DNA from: an uncultured Gammaproteobacteria bacterium
GTDB taxonomy: Bacteria > Patescibacteriota > Microgenomatia > Daviesbacterales > UBA10151
Reading direction: 5' to 3'
DNA length: 64,000 nucleotides
Assembly (NCBI GenBank): GCA_964500725.1
Contig: CAZCNP010000003.1
Span: 59,476-123,475 of the forward strand
The notes below the pieces were generated by a model that did no database searches, had not been told where the DNA came from, and worked only from the letters and a program-made list of their open reading frames with translations. Position numbers and translations under genes: made by a program. The stretch's first letter is position 1. Every line of letters begins with the position of its first letter. Below are positions 116-39,420 of this stretch, one piece after another.

Positions 116-439
116 ATGCATGGACTGACTTTCCAGTATTATCAAACTATTTATTCAATTTCTTTAAAAAGCAAAAAGTATCAGATAGGGAAACAAGGAT
201 ATGTCTATCATAAAATTAAAGAGCCAATCTTTTATAACCAGCTAGGTCTTATCAGTAATGGTAGATATACCATAGCGGATAAAGAACGCACTATCACAGA
301 TTGCCTTTATGTATTCCCAGGGATTGCCTTTGATAATTTAGAAGGGATTGACAAAGACAAACTGCTCACTTTATCTAAGATATATGATAATAAAAGACTA
401 GAAAAAGAGGTAAAAAAACTCATCACCTATGCTGGATAA
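116..439 (+). CDS. Putative AbiEi-like antitoxin/regulator, short form, partner of the downstream AbiEii gene
   Basis: 107-aa ORF overlaps the start of the downstream DUF1814 gene by 11 nt, a TA-like arrangement. It carries a 'TIADKERTITDCL' segment that resembles the conserved C-terminal motif of AbiEi antitoxins. The N-terminus may lie upstream of or beyond the window start. Confidence 0.4.
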   Translation: MHGLTFQYYQTIYSISLKSKKYQIGKQGYVYHKIKEPIFYNQLGLISNGRYTIADKERTITDCLYVFPGIAFDNLEGIDKDKLLTLSKIYDNKRLEKEVKKLITYAG

Positions 440-1103
440 AACAAGACACGAACAAATCTTAAAAAATATTTTAAAGGATATTTATACCAGTACTGAACTT
501 GAGGACAAATTTGCTTTAAAAGGTGGCACATGTTTGTATTTATTCTATAACCTGGACCGTTTTTCAGTTGATTTAGACTTTAATTTAATTGCAGAAGATT
601 TTAATGACAAGAAGCTAAACAGAATTATCAGCGAGCATCTCACCATCGATGATTTTAGAAATAAATATTTTACCTGGATCTTTTTGGGAAGTTATGAAAA
701 AGGGCAACGGAAAATCAAAATAGAAATAAACAAAAGAAATTATCCTGATAAATACACTAACAGAGATTTTTATGGCATTACAATCCCCACATTATCGCCT
801 GAGTGTATGTTTGCACACAAACTTTGCGCTATTGCTGACAGAAAAAAGCTGCAGAACAGAGATTTATATGATGCCCATTTTATGTTTAATAAACAGTTTG
901 ATATCAGTGAGGAGATAATTAAAATACGCACAGGTAAAACATTGAAGGAATATTTTGCTTATTTAGTTCTGTTTATTGAAAAAAAAGCCAACCCTGAACA
1001 TATCTTAGACGGACTGGGAGAACTTTTAAATGACGCGCAAAAAAACCATGTAAAAACCACCCTAGTGAGGAACTTACTATTTGATCTTAAATCACGCATA
1101 TAA
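429..1103 (+). CDS. AbiEii/DUF1814-family nucleotidyltransferase (type IV TA / abortive-infection toxin)
   Basis: N-terminal 'LKGGTCLYLFYNLDRFSVDLDF' matches the GGTAL...R.S.DLDF signature of AbiEii/DUF1814 nucleotidyltransferases. Length is 224 aa. Confidence 0.75.
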   Translation: MLDKTRHEQILKNILKDIYTSTELEDKFALKGGTCLYLFYNLDRFSVDLDFNLIAEDFNDKKLNRIISEHLTIDDFRNKYFTWIFLGSYEKGQRKIKIEINKRNYPDKYTNRDFYGITIPTLSPECMFAHKLCAIADRKKLQNRDLYDAHFMFNKQFDISEEIIKIRTGKTLKEYFAYLVLFIEKKANPEHILDGLGELLNDAQKNHVKTTLVRNLLFDLKSRI

Positions 1104-1154: not shown

Positions 1155-1538
1155 ATGAAAAAATTAGCAGTTGTAGGCTCTACTATTACAGCTTTATTAA
1201 CACCTATTCAGGTATTGGCACAGGATATAGACATCAAACCTCCCACTCAAGGTTATAGAGATTTGGGACCTTTTATTACCAATCTAATAAGTTTGGCCTT
1301 TATAATTGCCTTGATTCTAGTATTAGTTATGATTATCTGGGGAGCACTTGAATGGATCACTTCAGGCGGAGACAAAGAAAACGTTGGTAAAGCCAGAGGT
1401 AAAATTATTAATGCTTTAATAGGCTTGGCTGTTTTAGCAGTAGCCTTTGCTTTGTTTAGGTTTGCTGGCCAATTCTTAGGATTTAATGTTGGTACTGGAG
1501 GAAGCACGATTAGCCTACCTATACCAAAGCCTAACTAA
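1155..1538 (+). CDS. VirB2/TrbC-like pilin candidate (type IV secretion/pilus subunit)
   Basis: 127 aa with an N-terminal signal peptide followed by two long hydrophobic helices split by a 'TSGGDKENVGKARGK' loop. This is the typical T4SS pilin architecture. The next ORF is a paralog. Confidence 0.5.
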   Translation: MKKLAVVGSTITALLTPIQVLAQDIDIKPPTQGYRDLGPFITNLISLAFIIALILVLVMIIWGALEWITSGGDKENVGKARGKIINALIGLAVLAVAFALFRFAGQFLGFNVGTGGSTISLPIPKPN

Positions 1539-1606
1539 TTTAAGTTCAAAAACTCATTGATCTTCAAAGATATTAGTGGTAAGTTAGAAGATATCTCAAA
1601 ACTCAA

Positions 1607-2032
1607 ATGTCAAAACTGTTAATCATATTTTTTACTTTTTCCTTTTTACTTTTTACCCCTACTTCCCCTGTTTATGCAGTCTGCGACCCTAATGCGCCTA
1701 TCGATAAAAGAAGCGCTGATTGTCCTGCAGGACTTGATCAATTTGAAGCCATGGTTGGACAACTTGTTTTTGTGATTGTAGGACTAGGGTTTATTGCCAC
1801 CCTAGTTATGCTAGTTATGGCTGGGTTTAAATACTTAACATCTGGGGGAGAACCTAAAGCTATCCAAGCTGCCCACCAAACTGCCACCTGGGCTCTTTTA
1901 GGAATACTATTTATGGCTGTTGCCTGGGTGCTCTTGCAACTAATCCAAGGGTTTACAGGAATTCAAGTTACAATATTTGATATTAAAGCTTTGTGCGGTG
2001 TTACTGGAGATCCATTGAAATTCTGTAAATAG
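1607..2032 (+). CDS. VirB2/TrbC-like pilin candidate, tandem paralog
   Basis: 141 aa with a signal peptide (…PVYA) and two hydrophobic helices separated by a 'LTSGGEPKAIQAA' loop. It shares the SGG(D/E) loop with the preceding ORF. Confidence 0.5.
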   Translation: MSKLLIIFFTFSFLLFTPTSPVYAVCDPNAPIDKRSADCPAGLDQFEAMVGQLVFVIVGLGFIATLVMLVMAGFKYLTSGGEPKAIQAAHQTATWALLGILFMAVAWVLLQLIQGFTGIQVTIFDIKALCGVTGDPLKFCK

Positions 2033-2081: not shown

Positions 2082-3461
2082 TTATATATTGGAATTTCGG
2101 GAACCTTCCTGAAAAAATTCTTTCCCGTTTAGTATCAACCAGGCCCATAATGGTATAAACTCAATTTTCTTACCCTCTATCTTTTTTACATCAGCATAGT
2201 TTTTAGTGAGCACTATTCCCTGATCGAGATTAAACTCACTCAGTCCCTCAACTAATCCCTCTGCCTCCCTATCATGCGGTTGATCGGTATAACTAACGTT
2301 TACAAATGATAAATTCGGGCTCATCACCACAAAATCTATCTCCCTTTTCCCCCTCCAGTAATATACTGCCGGGTTATTCCTCTTAAGCTCCATATAGACT
2401 ATATTTTCAGCGCATTGCCCGATATCCAGACGGGGAAGCGGTATGTTAAAGTTTCGCAACCCATTATCAACAACATAAATTTTTCTTGGCCGTTGAATAT
2501 CCTGAGTCTCTTTAGTTTTATAGGAAAAATGCCTGCTTTCAAAAAAAAGGTATGCTTTCTCGAAGTACTCAAGATATGATTTTACCGCATCCACTGATAA
2601 CTTTTGCGGCCGGCCTAAACTGCTATAGGTATGTGTTCTGGTAAAATCAGACATTATCTGGAGTCCTAGGACTTCTACCTCTTGAGCGTTCCGGATTGCA
2701 TTTGGCTTTAAAACATCACGGCTGATAATATCGGAATAATAAGCTGCTGCCAGTGTTTTTTTCACTTCCTCTTCCGGGGCTAATATAATTTCAGGATAGC
2801 CACCCTCAAACATATAATTTCCCAAATGGTGAAGGATAGTTGACATTCGGCTAAAATTAGCATCCTGAAGACTTTGTAAAGTATCTCCTCTGACATCTAC
2901 TTTGCGCATTAGAAGGTACTCATAAAAATTGAGGGGATATATATCAAGAACCACATTCCTGCCGGTTAACACCGTAGCTGATTCTGACTCAACCAGCGCC
3001 CGCCTGGATCCTGAAAGAATAAATTTGACAGGTTCCTTCCGTTCATACTTTGAAGCTATCCAGCGATTAAAGTCTTTTATTCCCTGAATCTCATCTAAAA
3101 AAAGATATACTTGTCCCTGAGGATCATATGTTTCCAGATAAAAATTATACAGATCATCTAAGAACTTCCATCCCAAGGAAAGATACTGCTGAGCCAAAAT
3201 ATCCTCTAAAAAGAGAAACAAAATGTTTCTAGCAGGAATGGTTTTTTCTTCCAGCAAATGCTTCACCATCTGTTGCATAAGCGTTGATTTTCCTGCCCGC
3301 CTCACACCGGTTAGAATCAGGACGTGGCGAATATCTAAAAGTTTTTTAAGCCTGGAAAGATACTTTTCTCTTGTCACAGTCCCGATCCAACCCCCTTTTT
3401 GAGGGTTAGTAAAATGAGGGTTCCAGGTATCAATTAATTTTTTCAATATTTCAGTATCCAT
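2082..3461 (-). CDS. AAA+ ATPase of the AAA_14/DUF4143 family
   Basis: Walker A 'LILTGVRRAGKSTLMQQ' and Walker B 'LFLDEIQ' are present. The 459-aa size is typical of DUF4143 ATPases. Confidence 0.8.
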   Translation of the reverse strand: MDTEILKKLIDTWNPHFTNPQKGGWIGTVTREKYLSRLKKLLDIRHVLILTGVRRAGKSTLMQQMVKHLLEEKTIPARNILFLFLEDILAQQYLSLGWKFLDDLYNFYLETYDPQGQVYLFLDEIQGIKDFNRWIASKYERKEPVKFILSGSRRALVESESATVLTGRNVVLDIYPLNFYEYLLMRKVDVRGDTLQSLQDANFSRMSTILHHLGNYMFEGGYPEIILAPEEEVKKTLAAAYYSDIISRDVLKPNAIRNAQEVEVLGLQIMSDFTRTHTYSSLGRPQKLSVDAVKSYLEYFEKAYLFFESRHFSYKTKETQDIQRPRKIYVVDNGLRNFNIPLPRLDIGQCAENIVYMELKRNNPAVYYWRGKREIDFVVMSPNLSFVNVSYTDQPHDREAEGLVEGLSEFNLDQGIVLTKNYADVKKIEGKKIEFIPLWAWLILNGKEFFQEGSRNSNI

Positions 3462-3588: not shown

Positions 3589-5418
3589 ATGTTTGCCCAG
3601 ATCCTTGCCATACTACTTACTACCAGCTACATACTACTAGCCAGTCCTGTATATGCCCAATCTGCAGCTCCTTCTGCAATACAGTCTACCATCTACAGTC
3701 TACCGACTACAGTAAGTCCTACCTCTCCTCTTTATACTGATCTGCTAGTTAATAATCTATTTCACTCCTTCTCTTGTATTGCTTTAGGGCAATCTGTGAT
3801 TGGACAGCCCTGCTTGACTTACCAGGTTACTCAAAATGCCCAGGGAGTGATTCAAAGTGTACCTATGCTTTCCCAAGTTAATACATCCGGAGGAGCTTTA
3901 GGGACAACCACTTCTTTAATTGGAGCATTATATACTCACCCTCCTGTTAGAACTGCTGATTATTTAGCTTCAGTTAGACAAAATTTTGGGATTGTAAAAG
4001 AAGCTAATGCTCAAGTAGTAGGCTCTGGGGCTCAAGTGTTAAATCCTATTTTAAGCCTCTGGCAGGTATCAAGAAATATTTCTTATGTAATTATGATCAT
4101 CATATTCTTAGTAATAGGACTAATGGTGATGTTTAGGAATAAAATTAACCCCCAAACAGTTATCACAGCTCAAGCAGCTTTACCAGGATTGGTAATTGGA
4201 CTGGTGATGATTACTTTTTCCTTCTTTTTTGCTGGTCTTATTTCTGATATGGCCTTTGTGGGAACTAATGTAGTAGGTTATTATTTTGTGGCAGCTGAAG
4301 GAAAATTAAGCGACTCAACTTTTCAAGACCAACTAAACCTATCACAGAAACTATCAGGCGCTAATATTTTAAACATTATGGGTCCACTCACAGGAATCCT
4401 TGATAATGGAGGCATCTTGCACCTTAACAATCTCGGCGGTGATATATCAAGATTTGCCAGCCTAATTTATGATAATTTAAGCAGCGCAGCACAAGGCGCT
4501 ATTCAGATGTTAGTATTTTGGCTCGCTGCTCAATTTATAGCTCCCATTATACCCACTGATGTTAGTACAAGCCCCTGGATGTTAATACTTAAACCAATAG
4601 TCGGCATAGTAGGAGGGGTAGCTGCAAACCTAGCCTTAGCCCCTCTACTGGGTTTATTCTTAAGTTTTGCTGCTGCTTTAGCCTTAGTCTATCAAATGTT
4701 GAAATTATTCTTTAGGTTAATTATGGCCTGGTTAACCATAATATTTTTGACCATTAGCGCTCCGTTCCAGTTCCTTTTTGCTTCTTTACCAGGCAGACAA
4801 GGAATAGCTACCAGCTGGATTTTACAGATGCTAGGTAATATTTTGATATTTCCAGCTGTTATCGCAGTAATTTATTTTGTGGCTTTCTTACTTGGCCCCC
4901 AAAAGTTCAGCGAGAATTGTCCCAAAGACAACTCTAACCCTAACCAGTGTCTAATCAAAATTTCCGCTGCCAACCAAATCAATAATGGATCATTAATATC
5001 TCCTGTATATGCAACTGATGGCAGAGACATTGTTGGAAGTAATGCTTTTCCTTTATTTGGAGGACTTGATTTAAGTTTTATGAGAATATTATTGGCTTTC
5101 GGAGCTTTAATGGCATTACCGAAAATTCCTGATTTAATAGTTAGTGCTGTAGGGAAGGCCGGACAGGCAGGACAAATGATTGGACAAGAAATTATGGCAG
5201 GTACTGGATTTGGTCAAAGATATACTCAAAGACAATTTGGAGCAGGAATTGAAACTGGCCAAGGTGTTATAAAAGGATCCATAGGTGAAACTACTGTTGA
5301 TGCTTATGGTAATGTAGTACTATCAAGGCAAGGAATACTTCGAAGAGGTGTGGGGTCAAGTATTCCATCAGCAGCAGGTGGTGCTAAAGGCGGAGGTAAA
5401 TGGATATGGAAACCATAG
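3589..5418 (+). CDS. VirB6/TrbL-like polytopic membrane protein (T4SS channel candidate)
   Basis: 609 aa with a signal peptide, a ~150-aa extracytoplasmic N-domain, at least 6 predicted TM helices and a Gly-rich C-terminal tail. It sits next to the pilin-like genes. Confidence 0.5.
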   Translation: MFAQILAILLTTSYILLASPVYAQSAAPSAIQSTIYSLPTTVSPTSPLYTDLLVNNLFHSFSCIALGQSVIGQPCLTYQVTQNAQGVIQSVPMLSQVNTSGGALGTTTSLIGALYTHPPVRTADYLASVRQNFGIVKEANAQVVGSGAQVLNPILSLWQVSRNISYVIMIIIFLVIGLMVMFRNKINPQTVITAQAALPGLVIGLVMITFSFFFAGLISDMAFVGTNVVGYYFVAAEGKLSDSTFQDQLNLSQKLSGANILNIMGPLTGILDNGGILHLNNLGGDISRFASLIYDNLSSAAQGAIQMLVFWLAAQFIAPIIPTDVSTSPWMLILKPIVGIVGGVAANLALAPLLGLFLSFAAALALVYQMLKLFFRLIMAWLTIIFLTISAPFQFLFASLPGRQGIATSWILQMLGNILIFPAVIAVIYFVAFLLGPQKFSENCPKDNSNPNQCLIKISAANQINNGSLISPVYATDGRDIVGSNAFPLFGGLDLSFMRILLAFGALMALPKIPDLIVSAVGKAGQAGQMIGQEIMAGTGFGQRYTQRQFGAGIETGQGVIKGSIGETTVDAYGNVVLSRQGILRRGVGSSIPSAAGGAKGGGKWIWKP

Positions 5419-5445: not shown

Positions 5446-8400
5446 CTACCGGCTCATTTTGTTGAACAACCATTTAGCCCTTGTCATCTCTCGTTTTGGA
5501 TCCAGTATGGTTTTTTCCTTAAGCCTTTTATACCATTGTAGCTCTCCCGGATACGCTTCCCCTCCGCCTCCCTCTGTTTCACTAATAAGCCAATCAATAT
5601 ACGCATTAAAGAATTGCTCCTCTGTATGCCTTGCACTGCCAGTATTTCTATCTTTTGCCAAAGCATTTAGTATCTCTACGTTAGGCTTATCGTCTTTGAG
5701 AACTTCCTTATTTTCCAGATTCAAAGCCCCTTGGGCATTTCTGGTGTCTGATTCCATAGTTCTAACCAGCTTCAGCACAGTCCATAATCTATCAAATGAT
5801 TCTAGTACTAAATTCATAAACTCAATTTCAGCGTTATAATCTTTGAATACTCCTGTCTCGTTTTTTTCCAATCTATCCAAGATTTCTTGTATTTTCCCTA
5901 CCCTCTCTGAATTATTAGTTGGTTTTTCAAACAATCCTTCTATACTAAACCCCTTTTCAGAATCAACATGACCAACTAGAGCACCATAAATCATATTACC
6001 AATCTTCATTTGCTCAACCCATTTAGTTATAGCAAATTGACCGGCTAATCTTTGTTCCGACATCTCTCCAACAGGATCTGCAAACATCTCAATTGCTCCT
6101 AAAACCCCTACCTGCCCCCATTGATCTGGCATCGAGGAAACATTCAAGGGCAAATTAGCAAGTTCCGCAGCATAACGTCTCGCAAATCTTTTAGGATTGC
6201 TGGCCACAAACTGTCTCATCCTAATAATAAATCTTGCTATACCGGAATAATCCTCCAAATTGTAACCTGTACGGAATTTAAAGATATTTCCATCTTTGGG
6301 CATGAAAGCCGCATTTAATTCTCTGACAATTCTCCAATGGCTATAGTTTGATGCCTCAACCGCAGCATCCGAAAGAAGTATCTCAGCCTGCTGAGCACCA
6401 GTACCCTCAGGCATATCAGTATCTTTAAGACTAGGCACCCTATTTAGGGTTGGATCCAAAATTAACCGAATATCAGCCAATTTTTCGTGCTGATCCTCCT
6501 CTGATTCCGGCTCTATCATTAAATCCGGCCTCAATAGCCTCATTCTGCGTCTTTTAGCTGCTTGCACAATATCTGGGTTTATAACCTGATGCCTATTTTC
6601 CGGCTGGTAACTTAAGTAGGAATGATTTAACCATTTGTTTAAAGGATTTTCCGGATCTGTAGCAGTCTCAAAATCTATTATTTCTTCCAGATCTCCATCT
6701 AAACCAATAACATCACCAAAATTAGGTGAATTTTTATCCATATCAAACTTAAGTTTCCCAAACTTAAGTTTAGCTTCATAACCATTAGTTTTTAGTTGTT
6801 GGATGGCAACTGCTCTGGCCTGATCAACTGCTTTTGTTCTAACCTCGGCTGAAGAGTTAGCAAACTGGATCTTAATCCTAGTTTCCACATATTGAATAAA
6901 CATCTCTGCCTCATAAACCGGTATATTATCAACAAACCTGCGCCCATTTCCGTCTTTCCTGTCAATAAAGAATACGCCTCCTCCTCTTCTGGCCTTTTCC
7001 CCTGTTGATCCTACCATTTGAAAAGCTGTAGCAAAATTGGCTTTTGAATGATCATATGCTTCCTCCCAAAACTTTTTATCCCTGTCAGTTAGACGTTTCT
7101 GGGCTATTAATTCATCTATTACATCAATAAGCTGATGTTTTTCTTTTCCATCATGAGGAAGCAATAAAGATTGAACTTTTCCAATAATTACCGATTTTCT
7201 AAGGGCGGGCGAAATTGTACGTAACTCGTCGTCATTCCAATCTCTGTATGTTTGATAATTAATTAGATGAGCATTGCCTGAATCAAATCCATTGTATAAA
7301 CTTTTAAACTCTTCCTTTGGTTGGTGAATACCTATTCTTACCAAATTAGCCGCAATGGCTTTCTCTCTGGCTTGCTCAGCCTCCTCCAGCTTCAACACCC
7401 TGATAGAGTTGGAACCGTATGCAGCTGACTCTACATCCCTTGGGTCATAATTTTTCATCACAACACCCATTCCCTCCTCAATCAAAATTCCTTTAATTTC
7501 AGTATGAAGGTAGTGTTGAGTAACAGTGTCATTTAGTAATTGCCCTCTTGATCCGCCTGGGTTATGCATCAGTTTAATCCTTGGATCATAATCAAATTTC
7601 CATAAATACGCACCAACCGCACCATTACCTGATCTGGCAACCCGTATCCATCTATCGGGGCCTTCGTCCATAGCCATCGCCATCAAAAACTGATGAGCAC
7701 TACTCATATTATAGGTTTCAAATGAATAATCGCCCCCAAATACAAACCCATGACCTTGTAGCTCTTGTCTTAATGCTGTACTAAACCCCTCATCCATATT
7801 TTCTGAAGTGGCTGCTTGACCAACCATTTGTGTAAAATTGTTGAAATGCTCGTAAAGCTCGTTAGGAGATTTACCCAAACGGCCTCCTGTTACCGCACTT
7901 AAGAAGCTATCAACTGCTCTACGAAACTGCTTTGGTGTTTTGGCAAGGATTTCATATGTTTTGGGCCAATGTCCAGGCCTCCAATGAGTTTGTGTGTCAC
8001 CTTCATCATCTATATTCTCACTAACACTAAATTCGCCTTCTATAGGATCAGGCCTCTCACCAGTAAGCATTCTCTCAAGAATATCGCAGGTTCGCTGACT
8101 ATAAGCCTCGGCAATTCCACGCAATGGAGCTGCTCGAGGATCTGTTCTGCGACTCCTTAAAAGCGCTTCAATACTCCCTCTAGCAAAATCCCTAACCCTT
8201 GTTAATTCTTCTTCTACTTGCTGCGGAGGGATATTGCCCTGAGTAATTTGTTTATAAAAGGAAGTAAAAAGGGCATCTGCTCTATCAAGTAAGCCAAAAT
8301 TTCTGGCCTCCTTAAACCAAGTAGCCATATCAACTTCAACCGTTTCTGTATTAGCATCATCTGCGTATTTCTCGAATAATACATTTAGTGATTCTGCAGG

Positions 8401-9123
8401 TAGGACTACCGGTCGCTCGCCTCGATCTCTCTGATTAATTCCAAGCTGATTAGTTTCTGATGATTCTCCTCTAGCTCTCCTCTCTAGCGCTTCTTTTATT
8501 TTATTATATATTCTCCTCGGATCCCAAGGATCCTGTTCGTCTCTTATATTTCTTACCCTGCGAAGTGCCCTGGTGTAATCTTGTAGATCTGCATAGAGTT
8601 GATCTAGGTAAGGACCATTTCTTTCATTATATATTTCAGGCTTGCCAACTGTAGATAGCAAACCACTCACCGTGCGATATCTCTCGGTGTAAGGTAGAGT
8701 TGTTTCCAACCTAAGAATCTCCCTAACAATTGCCCTGCCTCTTTCTGGACTGGTTTCCCATTCTGGACCTCTTTCTGGACCGTTCGGAGATTCTGGACCT
8801 CTTAGCCTATCACCCTCACCACCAACGGCTCCTTGCACAGGTAAGTCATCCTCATCTGACCCTCCGCCTATGTCAGGCATTATTCTTGCTACTTCTTTAC
8901 CAGTTAACGGATCAATAAAGCTAGTTTGACCTCCTTTAAGCGGATTGCTTGTATATTCCTTCGCCCTTCTCGGATCATATCCTTCTAAAGGAAGAAATCT
9001 TTGTCTTAGAACAGAGGATTGATGAGGGCCTGTTTCTACTGGTGTATTATGGGCATGCACTCCTTGAGAACCTATTTCTGAAGATAATCCACCTTCTGAC
9101 ATATTTATTTCTATTCTAGCCAT
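5446..9123 (-). CDS. Large hypothetical protein (1225 aa), no recognisable domain
   Basis: Long uninterrupted ORF with no TM segments and no Walker motifs. The N-terminal region is low-complexity with PERGPE-like repeats encoded by four TTCTGGAC(C) copies at 8743-8799. Confidence 0.7.
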   Translation of the reverse strand: MARIEINMSEGGLSSEIGSQGVHAHNTPVETGPHQSSVLRQRFLPLEGYDPRRAKEYTSNPLKGGQTSFIDPLTGKEVARIMPDIGGGSDEDDLPVQGAVGGEGDRLRGPESPNGPERGPEWETSPERGRAIVREILRLETTLPYTERYRTVSGLLSTVGKPEIYNERNGPYLDQLYADLQDYTRALRRVRNIRDEQDPWDPRRIYNKIKEALERRARGESSETNQLGINQRDRGERPVVLPAESLNVLFEKYADDANTETVEVDMATWFKEARNFGLLDRADALFTSFYKQITQGNIPPQQVEEELTRVRDFARGSIEALLRSRRTDPRAAPLRGIAEAYSQRTCDILERMLTGERPDPIEGEFSVSENIDDEGDTQTHWRPGHWPKTYEILAKTPKQFRRAVDSFLSAVTGGRLGKSPNELYEHFNNFTQMVGQAATSENMDEGFSTALRQELQGHGFVFGGDYSFETYNMSSAHQFLMAMAMDEGPDRWIRVARSGNGAVGAYLWKFDYDPRIKLMHNPGGSRGQLLNDTVTQHYLHTEIKGILIEEGMGVVMKNYDPRDVESAAYGSNSIRVLKLEEAEQAREKAIAANLVRIGIHQPKEEFKSLYNGFDSGNAHLINYQTYRDWNDDELRTISPALRKSVIIGKVQSLLLPHDGKEKHQLIDVIDELIAQKRLTDRDKKFWEEAYDHSKANFATAFQMVGSTGEKARRGGGVFFIDRKDGNGRRFVDNIPVYEAEMFIQYVETRIKIQFANSSAEVRTKAVDQARAVAIQQLKTNGYEAKLKFGKLKFDMDKNSPNFGDVIGLDGDLEEIIDFETATDPENPLNKWLNHSYLSYQPENRHQVINPDIVQAAKRRRMRLLRPDLMIEPESEEDQHEKLADIRLILDPTLNRVPSLKDTDMPEGTGAQQAEILLSDAAVEASNYSHWRIVRELNAAFMPKDGNIFKFRTGYNLEDYSGIARFIIRMRQFVASNPKRFARRYAAELANLPLNVSSMPDQWGQVGVLGAIEMFADPVGEMSEQRLAGQFAITKWVEQMKIGNMIYGALVGHVDSEKGFSIEGLFEKPTNNSERVGKIQEILDRLEKNETGVFKDYNAEIEFMNLVLESFDRLWTVLKLVRTMESDTRNAQGALNLENKEVLKDDKPNVEILNALAKDRNTGSARHTEEQFFNAYIDWLISETEGGGGEAYPGELQWYKRLKEKTILDPKREMTRAKWLFNKMSR

Positions 9124-9271
9124 ATCATTCCTTTCCTAGGAAATTCTATGACTAATTCCAGCATAGAACTTCCGAAATTAAATGTCAAAACATTTGCATC
9201 TTAGCAGTCAATTACAAAATGCGCTTGATTTAAAACTGAGAAAATCCTGACAATATTAGTGCTAAATTATG

Positions 9272-9658: not shown

Positions 9659-11404
9659 CTAACACTGCCTTACTGCAGAGCATTTTGGACACCTCTCTCC
9701 TCTTCTTACCACACATCTTATTTCTGCCCCACAGGCTCCACATTTTATACAATAATCTTTATCTTTAGAAAACAAACCTGAAATCCCTCGAACTACATCT
9801 GAAGACAAACCACTTGTAACTGCTCCTACCCCTCCGGCAGAGAAATCTCCTGAAAAACCACAACCTACCATAACTGCCTTTACTATCATCTTGCCATAAT
9901 AATGCAATTCTTCTTGGAAACTTCTAAGAACCTCAGCCCCTTTTTGAACTGCGTTTTTAACAATTCCTATCCCTCTTTTTACAAGGTTACTTTCCGTTAC
10001 CTGCTCTCTTAGACTATCAAACTTGTTTATAACTGCTTTGTAAGCCTCTCTTACTTTTTCTGGATTAAAGAATTTAGCACAAATAGTCTCTGCATAATAC
10101 ACAATAAATAATCTACACTCCTCTAAATAATACTTAGTCTTCTCTTCCTCTGTCGCTCCTTCTTGTTTTTTAAATTCTGTTGCAAAAATCTGCTGGACGC
10201 TCCTAGTATCTGACTGATCAATATAAATAGGGTTTATTTTAAAATATAGGTCTATACTCTCCTCCATTGGAGCACTTTCTGAATTAAAGTAATTTCTATC
10301 AAGGCTGGTTGCAATTTTTTTGTACGCTTCATAATTTACCCCTGAGGCAAACCTAGTCATTACCACCACAACCTTGCCTGTAGTAGGATCAATAGTCTTT
10401 GTAAAAATATCAACGAAATTATCTGTAAATGCTGTGCCTTTTTTAAGCCCTGGTCCAGAAATAATAACTGCTTTAGACTCTAGAGGTACCTGCGGATCAA
10501 ATAATCCCTTCATTACTTTTTCCCAGCCTTTAAACTCCTCTGCCTCACGTTCGTAATCCACAAATCCCTTTTGTTTGCTATAAACCAAACCTCTTTGCAA
10601 AACCACATCAAAAGATTCTCCAGGAAATTTTGGGTTATATATTTTACCCTTGCTATCTTGGTAATAAACAACTGTACTTTCTGCTGTATGAGCCCGTTCG
10701 TATAAATGTCTTCGCTTATCTTCAATTATCCCCTGCCTTACTGCTTGCCTTTCTGCATCTGTTTTAGCACGCTCATATCTGGCTCTATCTACTGCCGGAT
10801 CGTACGCCAACCTTGGCCCTCCATATATCCCAAGCGCTTTATGCAACTGCTCAACTCTTCTTAAATCTTTACTAAAATCAATAGAACCAGATGAAGGAAA
10901 AATAGTTTTATCTTCTGCTATATTCTGTGTTATCTGGAGCTCTGCAGGGGGCGAAATTCGGTCAGCAGGTCGAGCAAGAATCAATGTGCTATCAAAAGGA
11001 GAAATTTGTTTATTTATGCTATCTAAACTTGGTAAGGTAATATCTTCATCTGATAAAGGTCTCGTATTTTCTAATGCAGAATTCAGGGAAAAAGTAGTTC
11101 TGGGTTTTACTAAAACTACAGTTGATCTCAAATCTACGTCTGGTTTAAACTTATCGCCTGGATCTACCTTAGTTAAAGTACTAATTTTTCTGGAATCTTT
11201 AAGTTTTAAACCGGTAGTTAAGGTTGTAAAATTTGGAGGTGCTTCTACTGTCATATTACTCCTGCTCGGGATAAAAATTGTGGTCGGTCTCCTGACTTTA
11301 CAGTTGCGGCACAGTCTCTGAATTACACAGAGTTCCCTTTTTGTTTCCTTTCTTGCTTTAAGACAAGACGAAACACCACAATTTGTATAATACCAGGATA
11401 ACAA
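9659..11404 (-). CDS. Hypothetical protein (581 aa) with Cys-rich N- and C-termini (zinc-ribbon-like)
   Basis: The N-terminus is 'CGVSSC…CVIQRLCRNC' and the C-terminus is 'CIKCGACGAEIRCVVRRGERCPKCSAVRQC'. No other recognisable motif was found. Confidence 0.6.
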   Translation of the reverse strand: MLSWYYTNCGVSSCLKARKETKRELCVIQRLCRNCKVRRPTTIFIPSRSNMTVEAPPNFTTLTTGLKLKDSRKISTLTKVDPGDKFKPDVDLRSTVVLVKPRTTFSLNSALENTRPLSDEDITLPSLDSINKQISPFDSTLILARPADRISPPAELQITQNIAEDKTIFPSSGSIDFSKDLRRVEQLHKALGIYGGPRLAYDPAVDRARYERAKTDAERQAVRQGIIEDKRRHLYERAHTAESTVVYYQDSKGKIYNPKFPGESFDVVLQRGLVYSKQKGFVDYEREAEEFKGWEKVMKGLFDPQVPLESKAVIISGPGLKKGTAFTDNFVDIFTKTIDPTTGKVVVVMTRFASGVNYEAYKKIATSLDRNYFNSESAPMEESIDLYFKINPIYIDQSDTRSVQQIFATEFKKQEGATEEEKTKYYLEECRLFIVYYAETICAKFFNPEKVREAYKAVINKFDSLREQVTESNLVKRGIGIVKNAVQKGAEVLRSFQEELHYYGKMIVKAVMVGCGFSGDFSAGGVGAVTSGLSSDVVRGISGLFSKDKDYCIKCGACGAEIRCVVRRGERCPKCSAVRQC

Positions 11405-11445: not shown

Positions 11446-12126
11446 TTATTTCTTAACTACACTCATACCTAATTGCTTTGCTTTCTCCTTATAAAATTCT
11501 TGCAGTTCTTTTAAAGAAAGAGGCACTAACATTTTTGGCAAATCCTCAAACTTTTCTACCTTTAGGAAGTCGCTTCCCAACCATATTAAATCTAGTTCTA
11601 TTCTGAATTTCTCTTTGACAGCATATATCAAGTCCCACAAAGTAAATTCTTTTAAAAGAAAGTACAAATCTATAAAATCTTTAACTTCATTTCTATTAAC
11701 AATAGTTTGTAATTTATTGGCAGCAATATCAAATAAACTATCTACTTGTATCCCTGAAACAGTTAATCCCTTTTTTAATCTCTTATACGGATAATAAGCA
11801 AAATCCACTTTGATTTCTACTTTATTGGCCCTAAGAAGCTCATAGATTCTAGTATATTCTCTTTGCGTGAGCCTAATCTGCAATTTTTTGAAGGCTGCTA
11901 TCTTCTGGATAAAACGGTCAGGGATATCTTTATCGAAATCAGTTTCAGAAAAAAAATCCAGATCTTCAGAATCACGATGCTTAAGATAAGCACTGCTTAA
12001 TGCTGTACCGCCAGTGAAATAAAATTGTTTAATTAATTTGTTGTTTTTAGCAAACTCAGTAAGAATGAATTTTTGCAGAGGAGTTAAAACTAAATCTTCT
12101 AGCAACAAATTATTTACTTTCCCCAT
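11446..12126 (-). CDS. AbiEii/DUF1814-family nucleotidyltransferase (second copy)
   Basis: 'FYFTGGTALSSAYLKHRDSEDLDFFSE' is the same signature seen in the 429..1103 gene. Length is 226 aa. Confidence 0.75.
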   Translation of the reverse strand: MGKVNNLLLEDLVLTPLQKFILTEFAKNNKLIKQFYFTGGTALSSAYLKHRDSEDLDFFSETDFDKDIPDRFIQKIAAFKKLQIRLTQREYTRIYELLRANKVEIKVDFAYYPYKRLKKGLTVSGIQVDSLFDIAANKLQTIVNRNEVKDFIDLYFLLKEFTLWDLIYAVKEKFRIELDLIWLGSDFLKVEKFEDLPKMLVPLSLKELQEFYKEKAKQLGMSVVKK

Positions 12127-12320
12127 ATTAGAAACTCAAATAATCTTTTTCTTGAAGGCTCAAGATTTAGATCATGCCAATGTTTTTTAACTTCTTTTAG
12201 ATCAATTTTTTCTTTATCAGAAGGATAAATCCCATAATTAATTTGTCTTTCTAAAATAAGCAGTCTGCCGCTTTTGGTTTTCTTTAACTTGTTAATATCA
12301 TAATCCCAGATAAAAGGCAT
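12114..12320 (-). CDS. Putative cognate antitoxin/partner of the AbiEii gene (68 aa)
   Basis: It overlaps the upstream end of the AbiEii gene by 13 nt on the same strand. No recognisable motif was found. Confidence 0.3.
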   Translation of the reverse strand: MPFIWDYDINKLKKTKSGRLLILERQINYGIYPSDKEKIDLKEVKKHWHDLNLEPSRKRLFEFLIWGK

Positions 12321-12484
12321 ATTAAAATTATACCACTTTTCCGTAGAAGTTTTGGAAATTTATGAACCATTATACTAAATAGGTATATTTATCTAGTTTC
12401 ATCCAGAATAGTTGAGATTGCCCATAAATGACCTAGTTTGTACCTCTAGACTATAGTTTTTTCACGAGGTATAAAGGGGATAAC

Positions 12485-13504
12485 ATGGAAGCACATCCTA
12501 TCCCGCAAAATGTGACCTCATTCCAATTTAAACTGGTTGGGGATATGACTTTAAAACAATTTGTTTATTTGGCAAGTGGTGTTGGCATGGCTTACCTAAT
12601 TTTTGTATTGTTTGCTGCCAATCTCCCTTTTATTTCTTGGCCTTTTATTATTCTTTTTACTCTGTTGGGGGTAGCTTTTGCTTTTTTACCAATAGAATCC
12701 AGGCCTTTGGATCATTGGCTGGCAGCTTTTCTGACGGCAATCTATTCTCCGACTAAAAGAATTTGGAAGAAAAATGGCAAAAATTACAAAGAAGATGCGT
12801 TATATGCAAGCCGTCTGGTGACATATTTATCAGGACCAGCAAAAGAAGCCCCTCTTGCTATAAAAACAGCAGAGACAGCTCCGCAAACTGCTGATATTTC
12901 TAAATTACCTACTAAAGAAGAGTTACAAAAAACAGTTGATTTAGCCCGCCAAGCCCAACAGCTGCAGATGAAAATAATTCAAACTGAAAGAGCTTTATCC
13001 CAAATTAAAGATCAGGCCCAAAAACCCACCCCAGTACCAATTGATTATGGCCAAGAGGTTAACAAAATCCTGACTGATTTGCAAAGCCTGGTGAGTCAAG
13101 CCTCTGTTATTAAAGAACAAATCCAATCAATTCAAAAGCCCCAAACAGGAGGAGCAAATGTGACTCCTCCACCATTTCCTAAAGAAAAAGTTAAAGTAGT
13201 TATTCCTATCAAGCCTAAACAAACTACAGTAGCTTTAACCACATTCCCAAATGTCCTCAATGGTATTGTCAAAGATGCTCAAAACAATTACTTAGAAAGT
13301 GTAGTGGCAGTTATTTACAATAAAGACGGACTGCCTGTCAGAGCTTTAAAAACCAACAAATTAGGCCAATTTACAGGATCTACCCCACTGCCAAATGGAA
13401 CCTATAACCTTGAGCTTGAAAAAGATAATTTTTCTTTTGATGTCCTGCAAATTGAACTAAGCGGGACAGTTCTACCGCCATTGATGATTACAGCCAAAAC
13501 ATAA
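12485..13504 (+). CDS. PrgI/VirB3-like T4SS membrane protein with a long coiled-coil and beta-sandwich C-terminal extension
   Basis: The N-terminus 'IPQNVTSFQFKLVGDMTLKQFVYLASGVG' plus two TM helices matches the PrgI-family start (…f.GLtlrQf…). A Pro/Gln-rich coiled coil and a ~90-aa C-terminal domain follow. Confidence 0.55.
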   Translation: MEAHPIPQNVTSFQFKLVGDMTLKQFVYLASGVGMAYLIFVLFAANLPFISWPFIILFTLLGVAFAFLPIESRPLDHWLAAFLTAIYSPTKRIWKKNGKNYKEDALYASRLVTYLSGPAKEAPLAIKTAETAPQTADISKLPTKEELQKTVDLARQAQQLQMKIIQTERALSQIKDQAQKPTPVPIDYGQEVNKILTDLQSLVSQASVIKEQIQSIQKPQTGGANVTPPPFPKEKVKVVIPIKPKQTTVALTTFPNVLNGIVKDAQNNYLESVVAVIYNKDGLPVRALKTNKLGQFTGSTPLPNGTYNLELEKDNFSFDVLQIELSGTVLPPLMITAKT

Positions 13505-13507
13505 ATT

Positions 13508-14245
13508 ATGAACACAACCCAAGGCCATCTGGCCATTGCTGACATTTTTGAAAATATCCTCATCTTAAAAGACGGTGGTGGAGCCTTGGTTTTACAAGTA
13601 TCTGCTGTTAACTTTGGCTTACTTTCATCAAGAGAGCAAATTGCCATTATTTCCAGCTTTGCCCAAATGCTAAATTCCTTATCTTTTTGTATTCAAATCG
13701 TTATTCACTCAGAAAGACTGAATATATCTTCTTACTTGCAACTTTTGGATAATGCCAAAAAAGCTCAAACCAATCCCTTACTTTCTCAGATGATCAGTGA
13801 GTATAAACAATTTATTCAAACTACTATAAAAGAAAATGATGTTTTGGATAAAAAATTTTACCTGGTTATCCCCCTTTCCAGCCTGGAACTAGGATTAACC
13901 CCTTCAAAAGAGAATTTACAACAAAAAATCAAAACTGTGCTTTTACCAAGAAGGGATCAAGTAATTAGGCAATTAAGTAGAGTTAGTCTTAGGGCCACTC
14001 AACTTACCAGACAAAAACTAATTGAGCTTTTTTATGATATTTATAATGGTGAATTTTTGGAAACCCCGGTTGTAGAGCCAGTTAACCCTGAACAACTCAC
14101 TGTTAGGCTTAATTCCCCACAGCAAAATATCGAGAAGCAACCAGTTGTAGCAGCGCCACCTCCTCCTCAAGCTGCTCAAGCAGAACCTATGATAACTCAA
14201 AACACCAGAACCCACCCTTTTGTGGTAGAGGAGCTGGAAGGGTAA
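13508..14245 (+). CDS. VirB4/ConE-like N-terminal domain segment, separated from the ATPase ORF by an in-frame TAA
   Basis: 'ILILKDGGGALVLQVSAVNFGLLSSREQIAIISSFAQMLNSL…IQIVIHSERLN' resembles the N-terminal region of Gram-positive VirB4-family ATPases. It is in the same frame as 14249..16006, with a single TAA plus one codon between them. Confidence 0.5.
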   Translation: MNTTQGHLAIADIFENILILKDGGGALVLQVSAVNFGLLSSREQIAIISSFAQMLNSLSFCIQIVIHSERLNISSYLQLLDNAKKAQTNPLLSQMISEYKQFIQTTIKENDVLDKKFYLVIPLSSLELGLTPSKENLQQKIKTVLLPRRDQVIRQLSRVSLRATQLTRQKLIELFYDIYNGEFLETPVVEPVNPEQLTVRLNSPQQNIEKQPVVAAPPPPQAAQAEPMITQNTRTHPFVVEELEG

Positions 14246-14248
14246 TTT

Positions 14249-16006
14249 ATGAATATTTTTGATAAACTTAAAAAGGCAAAACCAGTTGAGGAGGCCAAAC
14301 CTCAGTTAACCTTAGAAGATGCTATTGCTCCTTCAGAAATTGAAGTTGATTTTAAACATTTAAGGCTAAATAACCACTTTTTCAAAACCTATTTTGTGTC
14401 TGGCTACCCCAGATTTGTTGATCCAAACTGGCTAGAACCTTTAATCTCCTTTGATCACTCGCTTTTGATCTCCATGTTTATTTACCCTTCTGGCTCCCAA
14501 GGAGTCTTGGATGAGTTAAAACGTAAAATTGCTGAGATGGAAGCAACCATCCAAACAGACCTGGAACGGGGCAGAGCCATAGATCCAGCAGTTGAGGTAG
14601 CTTTGGAAGATGCCAGAGGGCTGCAAGACCAACTGGTAAGAGGGGTAGAGAGATTTTTCCAATTTGCTCTCTATATTAGTGTGCCAGCCTCATCTTTAGA
14701 TGAGCTTCGCAACACCTCAAAATTGATTGAGTCTACTTTAGCCTCACTATCTATTACTGCCAAGCAAACCACCTTACAAATGGAAAATGGTTTTAAATCC
14801 ACCCTGCCTCAAGGCACAGATTTATTAAACTTGACCCACAATATGGATACTACCTCTTTGGCAACCACTTTTCCCTTTGCTTCATCAGAGCTAACTGCCA
14901 ATGAAGGAATTATGTATGGCATCAACCAACATAATGATTCTTTAATTCTTTTTGATCGATTCAGTTTAGAGAACGCAAACTCGGTTATATTCGCCAAAGC
15001 TGGAAGCGGTAAGTCCTATTTAGTCAAGCTGGAAGCTTTGAGATCTTTAATGTTTGGCACTGAAATTATCGCCATTGACCCTGAGCAGGAATACTTGCCC
15101 TTAGCCCAAGCTGTTGGGGGAGAGTATATTAACTTTTCCCCCTCCAGCCCAGCCAGGATTAATCCTTTTGACATGTCAGGCATTGCCATCCCTGGAGAAA
15201 ATGAGCTAGGCAGAAAAATCCTCTCTTTAACTGTTTTTTTAAAGATTATTTTGGGCAACTTAACTGCCCAGGAAGCAGCCATTTTAGACAGAGCTTTAAA
15301 GCAAACTTACTATCAAAAAGGCATTACTGATGATCCTAAAACCCAAAATAAAGTGCCTCCTTTGATGGAAGACCTGTATAAAGTTTTAATTGGGATGGAG
15401 GAAGGACCTGCTATGGACTTGGCTGCCAGGTTGGAAAGATTTATTAAAGGATCTCTGGTGGGAATTTTCTCAGCTCAATCAAATATTGATCTTTCCAACT
15501 CCTTTACAGTTTTTTCAGTCAGGGATTTACCAGACCAGCTAAGACCTCTGGCTATCCATCTGATTTTGGACTATGTGTGGACCAAGGTCAGAAGCAAGCT
15601 CAAAAAAAGGATTTTAATTGTAGATGAGGCTTGGTATTTGATGAGAAACCAGGATTCTGCTGACTTTTTGGTAGATATTGCCAAAAGATCAAGAAAATAT
15701 TATTTAGGACTCACAACAATAACTCAAGATGTGGAGGACTTTTTGGCAACTGAAAGAGGCAAAGAGATTATCTCCAACTCTTCTATTCAGATCCTTTTAA
15801 AACAAGCTCCAGCTTCAATTGATTTGCTAACCCAAGTTTTTGATCTATCAGAAGGGGAACAAAGGCTTTTAATGTCTGAGGGTATTGGTGAGGGAATCTT
15901 TTTTGCAGGCAATACTCATGTGGCTATTGGTGTGGTGGCCTCCCCCAAAGAACACCAACTAATCACCACCAATCCAGCTGAAATCTTGGCAAGACAAAAC
16001 AAATAA
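14249..16006 (+). CDS. VirB4/TrbE/ConE-family type IV secretion ATPase (Walker A/B part)
   Basis: Walker A 'FAKAGSGKSYLVK', Walker B 'ILIVDEAWYL' and an upstream 'YFVSGYPRFVDPNWLEPL' VirB4 N-domain motif are present. Confidence 0.85.
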   Translation: MNIFDKLKKAKPVEEAKPQLTLEDAIAPSEIEVDFKHLRLNNHFFKTYFVSGYPRFVDPNWLEPLISFDHSLLISMFIYPSGSQGVLDELKRKIAEMEATIQTDLERGRAIDPAVEVALEDARGLQDQLVRGVERFFQFALYISVPASSLDELRNTSKLIESTLASLSITAKQTTLQMENGFKSTLPQGTDLLNLTHNMDTTSLATTFPFASSELTANEGIMYGINQHNDSLILFDRFSLENANSVIFAKAGSGKSYLVKLEALRSLMFGTEIIAIDPEQEYLPLAQAVGGEYINFSPSSPARINPFDMSGIAIPGENELGRKILSLTVFLKIILGNLTAQEAAILDRALKQTYYQKGITDDPKTQNKVPPLMEDLYKVLIGMEEGPAMDLAARLERFIKGSLVGIFSAQSNIDLSNSFTVFSVRDLPDQLRPLAIHLILDYVWTKVRSKLKKRILIVDEAWYLMRNQDSADFLVDIAKRSRKYYLGLTTITQDVEDFLATERGKEIISNSSIQILLKQAPASIDLLTQVFDLSEGEQRLLMSEGIGEGIFFAGNTHVAIGVVASPKEHQLITTNPAEILARQNK

Positions 16007-18130: not shown

Positions 18131-18612
18131 TTTTATATAATAAAAACATGCCTAGACTGGGATTAAAAAAATTTGGGGTAATTATAACTGCTGCAATCAT
18201 CTTGATCTCTATTTTTGGCTATAAACTGTATTCTAAACCCACTCCTCCAACAGCTCAACCTACTGCTCGACCCTCTTTCTCTCCTGGACCAAATGATCCT
18301 CCCCAGATAGTTTCTACCAAACCTGACCCTTTGAATGAAACCATTATTTCTGCTGCTGAAATTATAGAGATTACCTTTAACAGGCCTTTGGAAAATGTCG
18401 GCGAGTTCAAAAGCAGAATGGAACCTAAAATAGAATATAAAGTCGAGCTTATAAATGACCGTAAAACAGCCAGAATCATCCCAGCCAAACCTTATGAACT
18501 TGGAGCTACTTATAATCTATATATTGGCCCTGACAGCAAGTTTGATGGGGTAGGAGAGTGGAAACAAGATAAAAGCTTTCATTTTAGAACCATCCCTTAT
18601 AAAGGGGTCTAA
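18112..18612 (+). CDS. Small membrane-anchored protein (N-terminal TM, Pro-rich linker, beta-rich domain)
   Basis: 166-aa ORF that overlaps the hydrolase gene by 19 nt and is the last gene of the plus-strand T4SS-like operon. Confidence 0.4.
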   Translation: MSFRSLVLYNKNMPRLGLKKFGVIITAAIILISIFGYKLYSKPTPPTAQPTARPSFSPGPNDPPQIVSTKPDPLNETIISAAEIIEITFNRPLENVGEFKSRMEPKIEYKVELINDRKTARIIPAKPYELGATYNLYIGPDSKFDGVGEWKQDKSFHFRTIPYKGV

Positions 18613-21771: not shown

Positions 21772-22173
21772 ATGACAAGCAGCAACCTAGATGAAAAAAA
21801 ATTAGCAAACATATTTAAACTCTTACCTGCAGTTAAACTGGTTTATTTTTTCGGTTCCAAAGCTTTGGGGAAAGAAGGGCCTTTAAGTGATTATGATTTT
21901 GCAGTGTATTTAGATGAACAGGACGCTAAGAAAAGGTTCCAAACCAGAATGGAACTTCTGGGTAAATTATCCATAAGTTTAGGTACTGATAAAATAGATT
22001 TGTCTGTTTTGAATGATATTGAACGCCCTGAGTTAAAATACTCTATCATTACCAGCGGTCATGTAATCTACGAACGGGAACCGTTTAAGATCTTACTTGA
22101 ACCCAAAATCCTTAACGAATATTTTGATTTTATGGATGGTTTAAAGAGGTTTGGATTGACAAGAAACATATGA
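21772..22173 (+). CDS. MNT-type nucleotidyltransferase antitoxin
   Basis: 'FFGSKALGKEGPLSDYDFAVYL' gives the GS…DxD minimal nucleotidyltransferase motif. It overlaps the downstream HepT gene by 4 nt. Confidence 0.7.
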   Translation: MTSSNLDEKKLANIFKLLPAVKLVYFFGSKALGKEGPLSDYDFAVYLDEQDAKKRFQTRMELLGKLSISLGTDKIDLSVLNDIERPELKYSIITSGHVIYEREPFKILLEPKILNEYFDFMDGLKRFGLTRNI

Positions 22174-39209: not shown

Positions 39210-39392
39210 GACTTGACAGGGGTAAGTGTTTGGTTTAAAGTATCTTTACAATTTAATATTCAAAATCAAGAGTGGTAGATAGAGAATTGGCTCGTTAAGC
39301 TACCCAGCAACCGATCTGAAAAATACGGTGCTACACCCAACCCTTTACAAAGGGAGGATTTGTCCTGAGCGAAGTCGAAGGAAATAAATTTA

Positions 39393-39420
39393 ACCTCTCT
39401 TTTAAAAGAGAGGTTTTTTA
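39393..39420 (+). terminator. Intrinsic terminator-like hairpin followed by a T-tract, directly upstream of the RBS of 39426..39803
   Basis: ACCTCTCTTTT/AAAAGAGAGGT is a perfect 22-nt palindrome followed by TTTTTT. AAGGAGG and the ATG follow within 20 nt. Confidence 0.5.

Follow-up and report, generated by a model that had tools for sequence, protein, structure and literature searches.

We analysed a chromosomal stretch of 64,000 nucleotides (contig CAZCNP010000003.1, positions 59,476 to 123,475; the whole stretch is called the window below), which has a G+C content of ~37% and lies beside replication-origin genes. The open reading frame (ORF) considered here occupies 5446..9123 on the reverse strand, starts with ATG and encodes 1225 amino acids. 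It is a real gene: the exact 1225-residue sequence is public at NCBI as hypothetical protein HY383_01900 of Candidatus Daviesbacteria bacterium. An earlier interpretation made without database searches (the sequence-only reading) had described it as the largest gene of a secretion-like block and as an orphan that might be cargo or effector of a type IV secretion system (T4SS). It is the largest ORF within the secretion block (1-18.6 kb); the biggest ORF of the window is one of 1601 residues at 47588. Comparison across loci identifies the ORF as the local occupant of a conserved slot in a Microgenomates-type Patescibacteria T4SS locus, and its product is referred to as the slot protein. The gene comprises the following parts.

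5446..9123, reverse strand: slot protein ORF (HY383_01900), 1225 amino acids, soluble and mostly alpha-helical, identified as an ORF and by the public match.
8803..9123, reverse strand: N-terminal region of ~107 amino acids, rich in G, P, E and S and variable, the only part that can be aligned by BLAST with the slot protein of locus L013 (family F2).
8737..8802, reverse strand: residues 108-129, RGPESPNGPERGPEWETSPERG, coded by an imperfect 30-nt duplication with four TTCTGGAC copies.
6736..8016, reverse strand: central region, about residues 370-796 (approximate mapping), the sole part similar to slot family F2 at the profile level.
5449..7371, reverse strand: C-terminal 641 amino acids (residues 585-1225), an alpha/beta-plus-helical domain with a confident model.

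The genes that define the slot and its setting are these.

1155..2032, forward strand: two VirB2-like T4SS pilin genes (PF18895), part of a pilin array.
3589..5418, forward strand: polytopic membrane protein of 609 amino acids with ~9 hydrophobic segments, a candidate VirB6 analogue.
12485-13504, forward strand: PrgI (VirB3-like), by Pfam.
13508-14245, forward strand: TraC/TrsD-like protein of 245 amino acids, by Pfam.
14249-16006, forward strand: VirB4 P-loop protein of 585 amino acids, by Pfam.
18609-19724: dnaN.
20349-21692: dnaA.

The membrane-protein gene is convergent with the slot ORF, the two stop codons lying 28 nt apart, and PrgI, TraC and VirB4 (12485..16006, forward strand) form a divergent machinery operon on the opposite side of the slot. 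This gene content, with PrgI, a TrsD/TraC-like protein, VirB4 and VirB2-like pilin arrays, is that of the Patescibacteria MPF-FATA-like T4SS as characterised in published accounts (Quinonero-Coronel et al. 2025, Wang et al. 2023; PMC12102498), which the locus also resembles in its chromosomal position next to dnaN and dnaA and in having no relaxase. Patescibacteria T4SS genes lie near dnaA, usually without a relaxase (PMC12102498, PMC10633639, PMC11665869). The only species put to the test, a member of Saccharibacteria, needs the system for epibiotic growth; a relaxase is missing from it as well as from most of the phylum, and the substrate that the system transports is described as unknown (PMC10633639, PMC11665869, PMC12102498). 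In the window the VirB4 function is split at 13508-16006 (forward strand), where the 245-residue TraC/TrsD-like protein, which resembles the N-terminal part of VirB4, is encoded directly upstream of the 585-residue P-loop protein. A pairing of TrsD with VirB4 of this kind has been reported in Patescibacteria (PMC12102498). The locus type is already known. The searched literature mentions neither the slot protein nor its orphan fold, hypervariability or shared N-terminal module. A large soluble protein at the slot position, or its hypervariability, is not described in the available portions of Quinonero-Coronel et al. 2025 and Wang et al. 2023, and a full-text literature search on Daviesbacteria and secretion returned nothing relevant.

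The slot position is unchanged in the 11 loci fetched by homology. In all of them the slot gene is convergent with a homologue of the 609-residue membrane protein, beyond which lies the pilin array, and wherever the contig reaches far enough PrgI, TraC and VirB4 are found divergently upstream of the slot gene, usually with other genes in between. The same arrangement of PrgI, TraC and VirB4 is seen in L005, L008, L009, L010 and many metagenome loci, and arrays of 2-10 pilin genes stand at the equivalent place in related loci. The locus L010, which encodes a homologue of 1938 amino acids, reads dnaN … VirB4-TraC-PrgI, then the homologue in the opposite direction, followed by a convergent 617-residue membrane protein, ten pilins and a Peptidase_M23 protein; a distant relative (L011) and one matched only at E 1.5e-11 (L012) are placed in the same way. 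A scan of GTDB genomes with narrow patterns added two further loci, and a metagenome scan with the membrane-protein alignment yielded 404 relatives, with 80 loci kept. Those with at least 4 kb downstream of the membrane-protein gene were taken as informative (n = 48), and each carries after that gene a convergent ORF of 538-1820 codons (stop to stop), which begins no more than 51 nt from the membrane-protein gene in 45 of the 48. In these loci as well a VirB2-like pilin array accompanies the membrane-protein gene, with PrgI, TraC and VirB4 on the far side of the slot where the contig is long enough. A locus without the gene, one of the observations by which the sequence-only reading had proposed to be judged, was not encountered among the 48. 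The gene family was never seen away from T4SS genes in 14 loci fetched by homology of the slot protein, and the proposed association with the T4SS is strongly supported, since the gene has not moved in any of the related loci examined.

Such a constant place among T4SS genes, seen in all loci examined, provides the genetic linkage looked for in a T4SS substrate; presence and position conserved in 48/48 informative loci are likewise what is looked for in a core T4SS subunit. No sequence or fold similarity to a known T4SS subunit family (VirB1-11, VirD4, PrgA-L/Tra) was found for the slot protein. As a side observation, the VirB4, TraC, PrgI, pilin and slot genes of L008 (contig CAZJNI010000001.1) are 50-83% identical to those of the Daviesbacteria window, and because of this the label 'uncultured Gammaproteobacteria bacterium' carried by its metagenome-assembled genome is probably wrong.

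The occupant of this constant position is hypervariable. The hidden Markov model of the target family recognises 19 of the 48 slot ORFs, and BLAST clustering separates the slot ORFs into at least six groups (F1-F6), the window protein belonging to F1. Profile-profile comparison relates F1 to F3 (probability 100%, E 4.5e-39) and F6 to F1 (probability 98%, E 1e-13), while hhalign relates F1 to F2 in the central region only, over 413 columns (probability 94.7%, E 6e-8); for F4 and F5, which come from more distant loci, no profile-profile relation to F1-F3 is detectable. The divergence of the slot protein does not track that of its flanks. Relative to the window, the loci L013, L017, L038 and L071 show 62-69% identity in PrgI, 66-69% in TraC and 50-64% in the membrane protein, together with 83-85% in the VirB4 of the first three (the contig of L071 stops before VirB4). 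All four carry F2 slot proteins, which cannot be aligned by BLAST with the window protein beyond the first ~90 residues. In L005 and L031 the identity of the flanks is equal or lower, yet the slot proteins belong to F1 and are 51-53% identical to that of the window. Within F1 the slot gene is the fastest-evolving gene of the locus. In L009, for example, identity to the window amounts to 86% in VirB4, 70% in PrgI, 66% in TraC, 54% in the membrane protein and 54-56% in the pilins, against 30% in the slot protein.

The N-terminus is shared between families. When the window protein is compared by BLAST with the F2 protein of L013, residues 1-89 alone give a significant match (40% identity, E 3e-7), a stretch that includes the leader MA-IE-NM-EG and the motifs YDPxRxxEY and DPxTGKEVAR. 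Both motifs are also present in the F3 protein of L032. In the window protein the leader of this region reads MARIEINMSEGG, and GYDPRRAKEY and DPLTGKEVARI are its short motifs. The pattern M-x3-6-E-x-M-[APS]-E opens most full-length slot proteins of F1, F2, F3 and F6 and leads into an acidic stretch rich in G and P; it is rarer in F4 and F5. The slot proteins are mosaic, with a shared N-terminal module attached to bodies related only at the profile level. The sequence L-x-RWENEGG recurs in the disordered N-termini of the homologues P0003, P0010 and P0023, and looks like a portable short linear motif similar to DPxTGKEVAR.

The N-terminal module also contains the repeat described in the sequence-only reading. 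Copies of TTCTGGAC are present at 8743, 8761, 8773 and 8791, four within 57 nt, where the complete 64-kb window would be expected to contain 1.7. Three of them are followed by C and the fourth by T, and the coding strand reads GGTCCAGAA three times and AGTCCAGAA once. Together the copies make up one imperfect in-frame duplication of 30 nt (8738-8767 and 8768-8797, 77% identical), and Tandem Repeats Finder reports no array at the site. The sequence-only reading had the repeats encode ~130 residues of PERGPE-type low complexity, which is an overstatement: the duplication encodes only residues ~108-129, a conserved motif, and the ~107 residues before it are rich in G, P, E and S, variable in length and sequence, and not PERGPE repeats. 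Positions P116, E121, S125, P126, E127 and G129 are invariant in 17 homologues (consensus GPRGPEGPRGPEWETSPERGR), the family-conserved form of the motif being GPE…PEWxTSPERGR. The number of proline-acidic (GPE-like) units ahead of the motif differs among homologues, which contain 2-9 P[ERDQ] dipeptides each in the 60-70 residues ending at the motif. The repeat thus encodes a conserved peptide motif and is not a variable tract of the contingency type; the missing array and the in-frame, 77%-identical duplication led us to reject a phase-variable contingency locus. A collagen-like Gly-X-Y protein was rejected as well, the window protein having only interrupted GPE units (RGPESPNGPERGPE) and the homologues reaching ~4-8 triplets (e.g. 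GPRGPEGPRGPE), which we judged too short for a collagen helix.

Searches with the slot protein against Pfam, NCBIfam, PHROG and PADLOC gave zero matches, as did a PDB sequence search with the single sequence and two profiles, and Pfam found zero domains in five distant, longer relatives. The protein is not an orphan in the strict sense, and the 'lack of homology' ascribed to it has to be given up: there are 16 close homologues with 32-72% identity, and a HMMER profile search of 1.84 billion representatives, made with trimmed sequences (<=1200 profile positions), returned 78 related representative clusters at E<=1e-3. These are mostly full-length proteins of 1150-2150 amino acids; the rest are shorter, many of them apparently fragments. 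What is missing is similarity to anything characterised. Over 19 residues, Kyte-Doolittle values peak at 0.98 in the window protein and stay below 1.6 throughout the 94 family sequences, none of which has a transmembrane-like segment or a signal peptide. Scans of the slot protein for Walker A and HExxH were negative. It has neither a Sec/Tat signal nor a transmembrane or N-terminal hydrophobic segment, as is looked for in a T4SS substrate made as a cytoplasmic precursor. The statement that the protein has no transmembrane segment, nucleotide-binding motif or recognisable domain accordingly agrees with both the scans and the family libraries.

This absence of known relatives extends to the fold. 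AlphaFold (AF2) modelled the C-terminal 641 amino acids confidently from a 43-sequence alignment, with a predicted local distance difference test score (pLDDT) of 88 and a predicted template modelling score (pTM) of 0.87. No structural neighbour of this model was found in the PDB, and neither of two models has a match to a relaxase or helicase fold. As modelled, the C-terminal domain is an orphan fold relative to the PDB. The protein ends in the family-conserved tail W-x-x-W-L-F-x-K-M, which is modelled as a packed helix. The last 30 residues carry a net charge of +7 in the window protein, compared with a family mean of +1.5 (SD 2.7), and the C-terminal charge is not consistent across the family.

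We tentatively favour the reading that the slot protein is exported through the T4SS and interacts with the host, a possibility that comes near to being probable without reaching it. The slot protein would be made in the cytoplasm and recognised by the T4SS through its conserved N-terminal module, composed of the MxxxExxM[AS]EG leader, a disordered segment rich in G, P and E that carries short linear motifs, and finally PEWxTSPERGR. Once exported, it would reach the cell surface, the pilus or the host bacterium, where the fast-changing body, including the C-terminal domain of orphan fold, may make lineage-specific contact with the host. Export is favoured because the protein lacks a Sec signal, because the rate and pattern of its divergence resemble those of host-interaction proteins rather than cytoplasmic machine parts, because a conserved N-terminal module sits on variable bodies, and because this type of T4SS has no known substrate and usually no relaxase. 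The slot protein is a credible but unproven candidate for what the Patescibacteria T4SS exports.

Several points weigh against export. Known T4SS signals are usually C-terminal, and the module shared here is N-terminal. Pfam detects no BID or XVIPCD-type domain or other known T4SS signal in the slot protein. A VirD4-like type IV coupling protein (T4CP) was not found among the 30 window ORFs scanned with Pfam. No conserved adjacent immunity or chaperone gene was found between the compared loci; the small upstream ORF of 110 amino acids was considered for this role and rejected, as it is not homologous between loci. A gene held as a single copy in a strictly fixed slot is what one would expect of a machine subunit sooner than of an effector. 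Conservation of the first ~10 codons could instead have its cause in translation initiation or regulation, and, with a neighbouring membrane protein that is itself fairly divergent, co-evolution of structural partners might account for part of the pattern. The cargo or effector role put forward in the sequence-only reading is still something we infer, indirectly supported by the out-of-step divergence and the mosaic N-terminus and weakened by the fixed slot and by the absence of a coupling protein from the window and of a known T4SS signal or immunity gene.

On a bolder form of the export reading, the slot proteins would be a rapidly diversifying family of orphan fold and the principal cargo of the Patescibacteria T4SS. 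The conserved leader and the disordered module at the N-terminus would mark them for export, and their delivery to the surface or the interior of the host bacterium would set the host range. We regard it as unlikely, yet worth stating: if true, no T4SS substrate would have been identified earlier in the Candidate Phyla Radiation, and their recognition module would be N-terminal rather than C-terminal. The slot gene provides a concrete candidate for a T4SS cargo or host-contact factor in Microgenomates, and the shared N-terminal module can be tested as a signal. By the synteny rule of a large ORF convergent with a VirB6-like gene, hundreds of such proteins could be harvested from metagenomes.

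The rival that survives best, doubtful as we find it, is that the protein stays in the cytoplasm, is never exported and serves the T4SS as a structural or assembly accessory. Possible roles are a scaffold that docks onto VirB4 and the VirB6-like protein, a functional substitute for the coupling protein that is missing, and a counterpart, encoded by a gene of its own, of the large hydrophilic domains found in 'extended VirB6' proteins. This reading is favoured because of the strictly fixed single-copy slot, which adjoins the VirB6-like gene in every locus, and the lack of a signal peptide or transmembrane segment suits it equally well. It is also consistent with the profile-level conservation of a central region of ~410 columns in F1, F2, F3 and F6, with the absence of a T4CP, a known signal and a conserved immunity or chaperone gene noted above, and with the essential proteins SEML1_0011 and SEML1_0013 of S. 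epibionticum, which are encoded in the interval between PrgI and the pilins and consist of permease-like parts and ARM-like helical domains. VirB6 homologues are reported to be scarce in Microgenomatia (PMC12102498), which also fits. The tempo of evolution speaks against the accessory reading: cytoplasmic machine parts evolve slowest (VirB4 83-86%), whereas the slot gene is the fastest, its families barely align, and its products vary from 538 to 2141 amino acids with large insertions. Because the slot protein has no P-loop, it could not replace the ATPase activity of a T4CP, and its gene, being convergent with the VirB6-like gene, is not co-transcribed with it. Even a cytoplasmic accessory of this kind would add to the T4SS a lineage-specific component whose fold is new.

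A sub-case of export, which we consider distinctly unlikely, is a pilus-associated or surface adhesin (VirB5-like or tip-like) that is exported by the T4SS and shown with the variable pilins for host-cell recognition, with no action inside the host. The gene lies near the sequence-diverse pilin array, which varies between loci as well (PMC12102498), its hypervariability resembles that of receptor-binding proteins, and no PrgB-type adhesin is reported from Patescibacteria. Against this, the protein lacks a Sec signal, a cell-wall anchor and an immunoglobulin-like or beta-rich adhesin domain, its fold is mostly helical, and known VirB5 and adhesin proteins are Sec-dependent. Still less probable is a novel DNA-processing 'pilot' protein, an analogue of a relaxase that would guide DNA through the T4SS and so make up for the missing relaxase. 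As T4SS substrates, relaxases are large and soluble and are encoded in the locus, and this locus type is without one (PMC12102498), but Pfam and NCBIfam give no HUH, relaxase, helicase or P-loop signature, Walker A is absent, the models do not match relaxase or helicase folds, and no conserved His-cluster or catalytic Tyr motif occurs among the residues conserved family-wide. A gene unrelated to secretion, either a passenger (defence, toxin-antitoxin or mobile-element cargo) or a contingency locus switched by TTCTGGAC slippage, is very improbable, since despite a hotspot for inserted toxin-antitoxin modules and AAA_14 genes on the upstream side the large ORF is kept in the slot in 48/48 informative loci while the inserted modules vary, PADLOC and PHROG give no match, and the in-frame, imperfect 30-nt repeat codes an invariant motif and lacks the homopolymeric or short-unit structure by which a tract could shift the frame.

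The favoured reading, export and host interaction, can be set beside known T4SS-linked proteins. CagA, the effector of the Helicobacter pylori cag T4SS, is largely helical and contains a disordered region whose short repeated motifs vary in copy number, and its allelic types are strongly divergent; to our knowledge it had no structural relatives when it was solved. The slot protein is like CagA in being a soluble protein of ~1200 residues without a Sec signal, encoded in a T4SS island, and it parallels what is generally known of CagA in its helical character, orphan fold, short motifs in a disordered region and divergence. It differs in having no sequence or fold similarity to CagA, in which the disordered repeat region is C-terminal and the host eukaryotic, and in occupying a fixed slot across a whole bacterial class, with translocation only putative. 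The X-Tfe, the bacteria-killing effectors of Xanthomonas-type T4SS, act between bacteria and combine a conserved XVIPCD with a variable toxin domain. They share with the slot proteins the combination of a conserved module, whose role in recognition is putative in the slot proteins, with variable functional bodies, and the slot proteins, if exported, would likewise act between bacteria through a T4SS. In X-Tfe, however, XVIPCD is C-terminal and binds VirD4, and an immunity gene is paired with each effector, whereas the shared module of the slot protein is N-terminal and there is no VirD4 nearby, no conserved immunity gene and no recognisable toxin domain. The extended VirB6 and F-plasmid TraG-type proteins (extended VirB6 proteins are discussed in PMC12857230) resemble the slot protein as large hydrophilic, mostly helical polypeptides tied to a VirB6-like polytopic protein; the slot protein differs from them in being encoded by a separate gene on the opposite strand, with a transmembrane fusion in 0/94 family members. 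The essential S. epibionticum proteins SEML1_0011 and SEML1_0013, of ~1000 amino acids and encoded between PrgI and the pilins, are positional analogues of the slot protein at most.

Modules of a mobile type are scattered across the T4SS and origin region of the window (116-1103, 2082-3461, 11446-12326 and 21772-22589). They include two AbiEii toxin genes, which have small ORFs upstream, as well as an MNT/HepT pair and the gene of an AAA_14/DUF4143 ATPase that has been inserted between the pilin genes and the VirB6-like gene. In related loci other toxin-antitoxin modules (PIN, PhdYeFM, BrnT, MazE) occupy the equivalent site ahead of the slot gene, and because of these differences the site looks like an insertion hotspot.

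The slot gene is preceded by elements that might control its expression.

9139..9188, reverse strand: promoter-like site TTGACA-17-TATGCT (9188-9160; a consensus match only), overlapping an inverted repeat or 5' hairpin (9173-9139; predicted by folding).

The hairpin has a 12-bp stem (GGAAGUUCUAUG…CAUAGAAUUUCC) with a dG of -17.5 kcal/mol and a z of -4.0, and sits just upstream of the Shine-Dalgarno-like AGGAAAGGA. The same inverted repeat (GGAAGTTCTATG…CATAGAATTTCC) is found upstream of slot genes of different families in L013, L037, L044 and L028, and could be an operator or a regulatory element of the 5' untranslated region.

A cobalamin riboswitch (RF00174, 41-62 bits) is conserved in this type of T4SS locus and was detected in 11 loci. 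It lies between PrgI and the slot gene where the contig holds PrgI, usually right beside PrgI, and is present whichever slot family occupies the locus (F1, F2, F4).

11265-11395, reverse strand, window: cobalamin riboswitch (RF00174).
9659-11254, reverse strand, window: ORF downstream of the riboswitch, 531 amino acids.
56-210 of L003: cobalamin riboswitch.
3214-3425 of L008: cobalamin riboswitch.
6148-6319 of L009: cobalamin riboswitch.
18481-18615 of L013: cobalamin riboswitch.
17738-17864 of L017: cobalamin riboswitch.
17672-17883 of L034: cobalamin riboswitch.
7254-7382 of L038: cobalamin riboswitch.
11533-11699 of L046: cobalamin riboswitch.
13463-13535 of L067: cobalamin riboswitch.
6570-6706 of L068: cobalamin riboswitch.

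The riboswitch is predicted to drive a protein of 449-531 amino acids without a Pfam match. This protein has a Gly-rich segment in all five loci read and ends in a Cys-rich tail (…CIxCGACxxxIxCVVRxGxxCPKCxAxRxC) in four of the five. In the window it was listed as an ORF of 581 residues with a TTG start (9659-11404, reverse strand), the first ~50 codons of which run through the riboswitch aptamer; the likely start, judged from the sequence, is the ATG at 11254, after GAGCAGGAG, which gives 531 amino acids. A full-text literature search on cobalamin riboswitches in the Candidate Phyla Radiation found no paper, and expression of a T4SS-linked gene under B12 control in a bacterium of this radiation appears to be undescribed so far. 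Co-regulation of the slot gene by B12 was rejected: variable toxin-antitoxin modules separate the two genes in other loci, and the slot gene has its own promoter-like site.

Outside the secretion block, the 1601-residue ORF already mentioned (47588-52393, forward strand) has only a short Peptidase_M48 match near its N-terminus, and an ORF of 918 residues at 59275-62031 (forward strand) is without a Pfam match. A SAM-I/IV riboswitch match (RF01725) at 39258-39398 (forward strand), which at 44.7 bits is barely over the gathering score, stands upstream of an ORF of 125 amino acids at 39426-39803.

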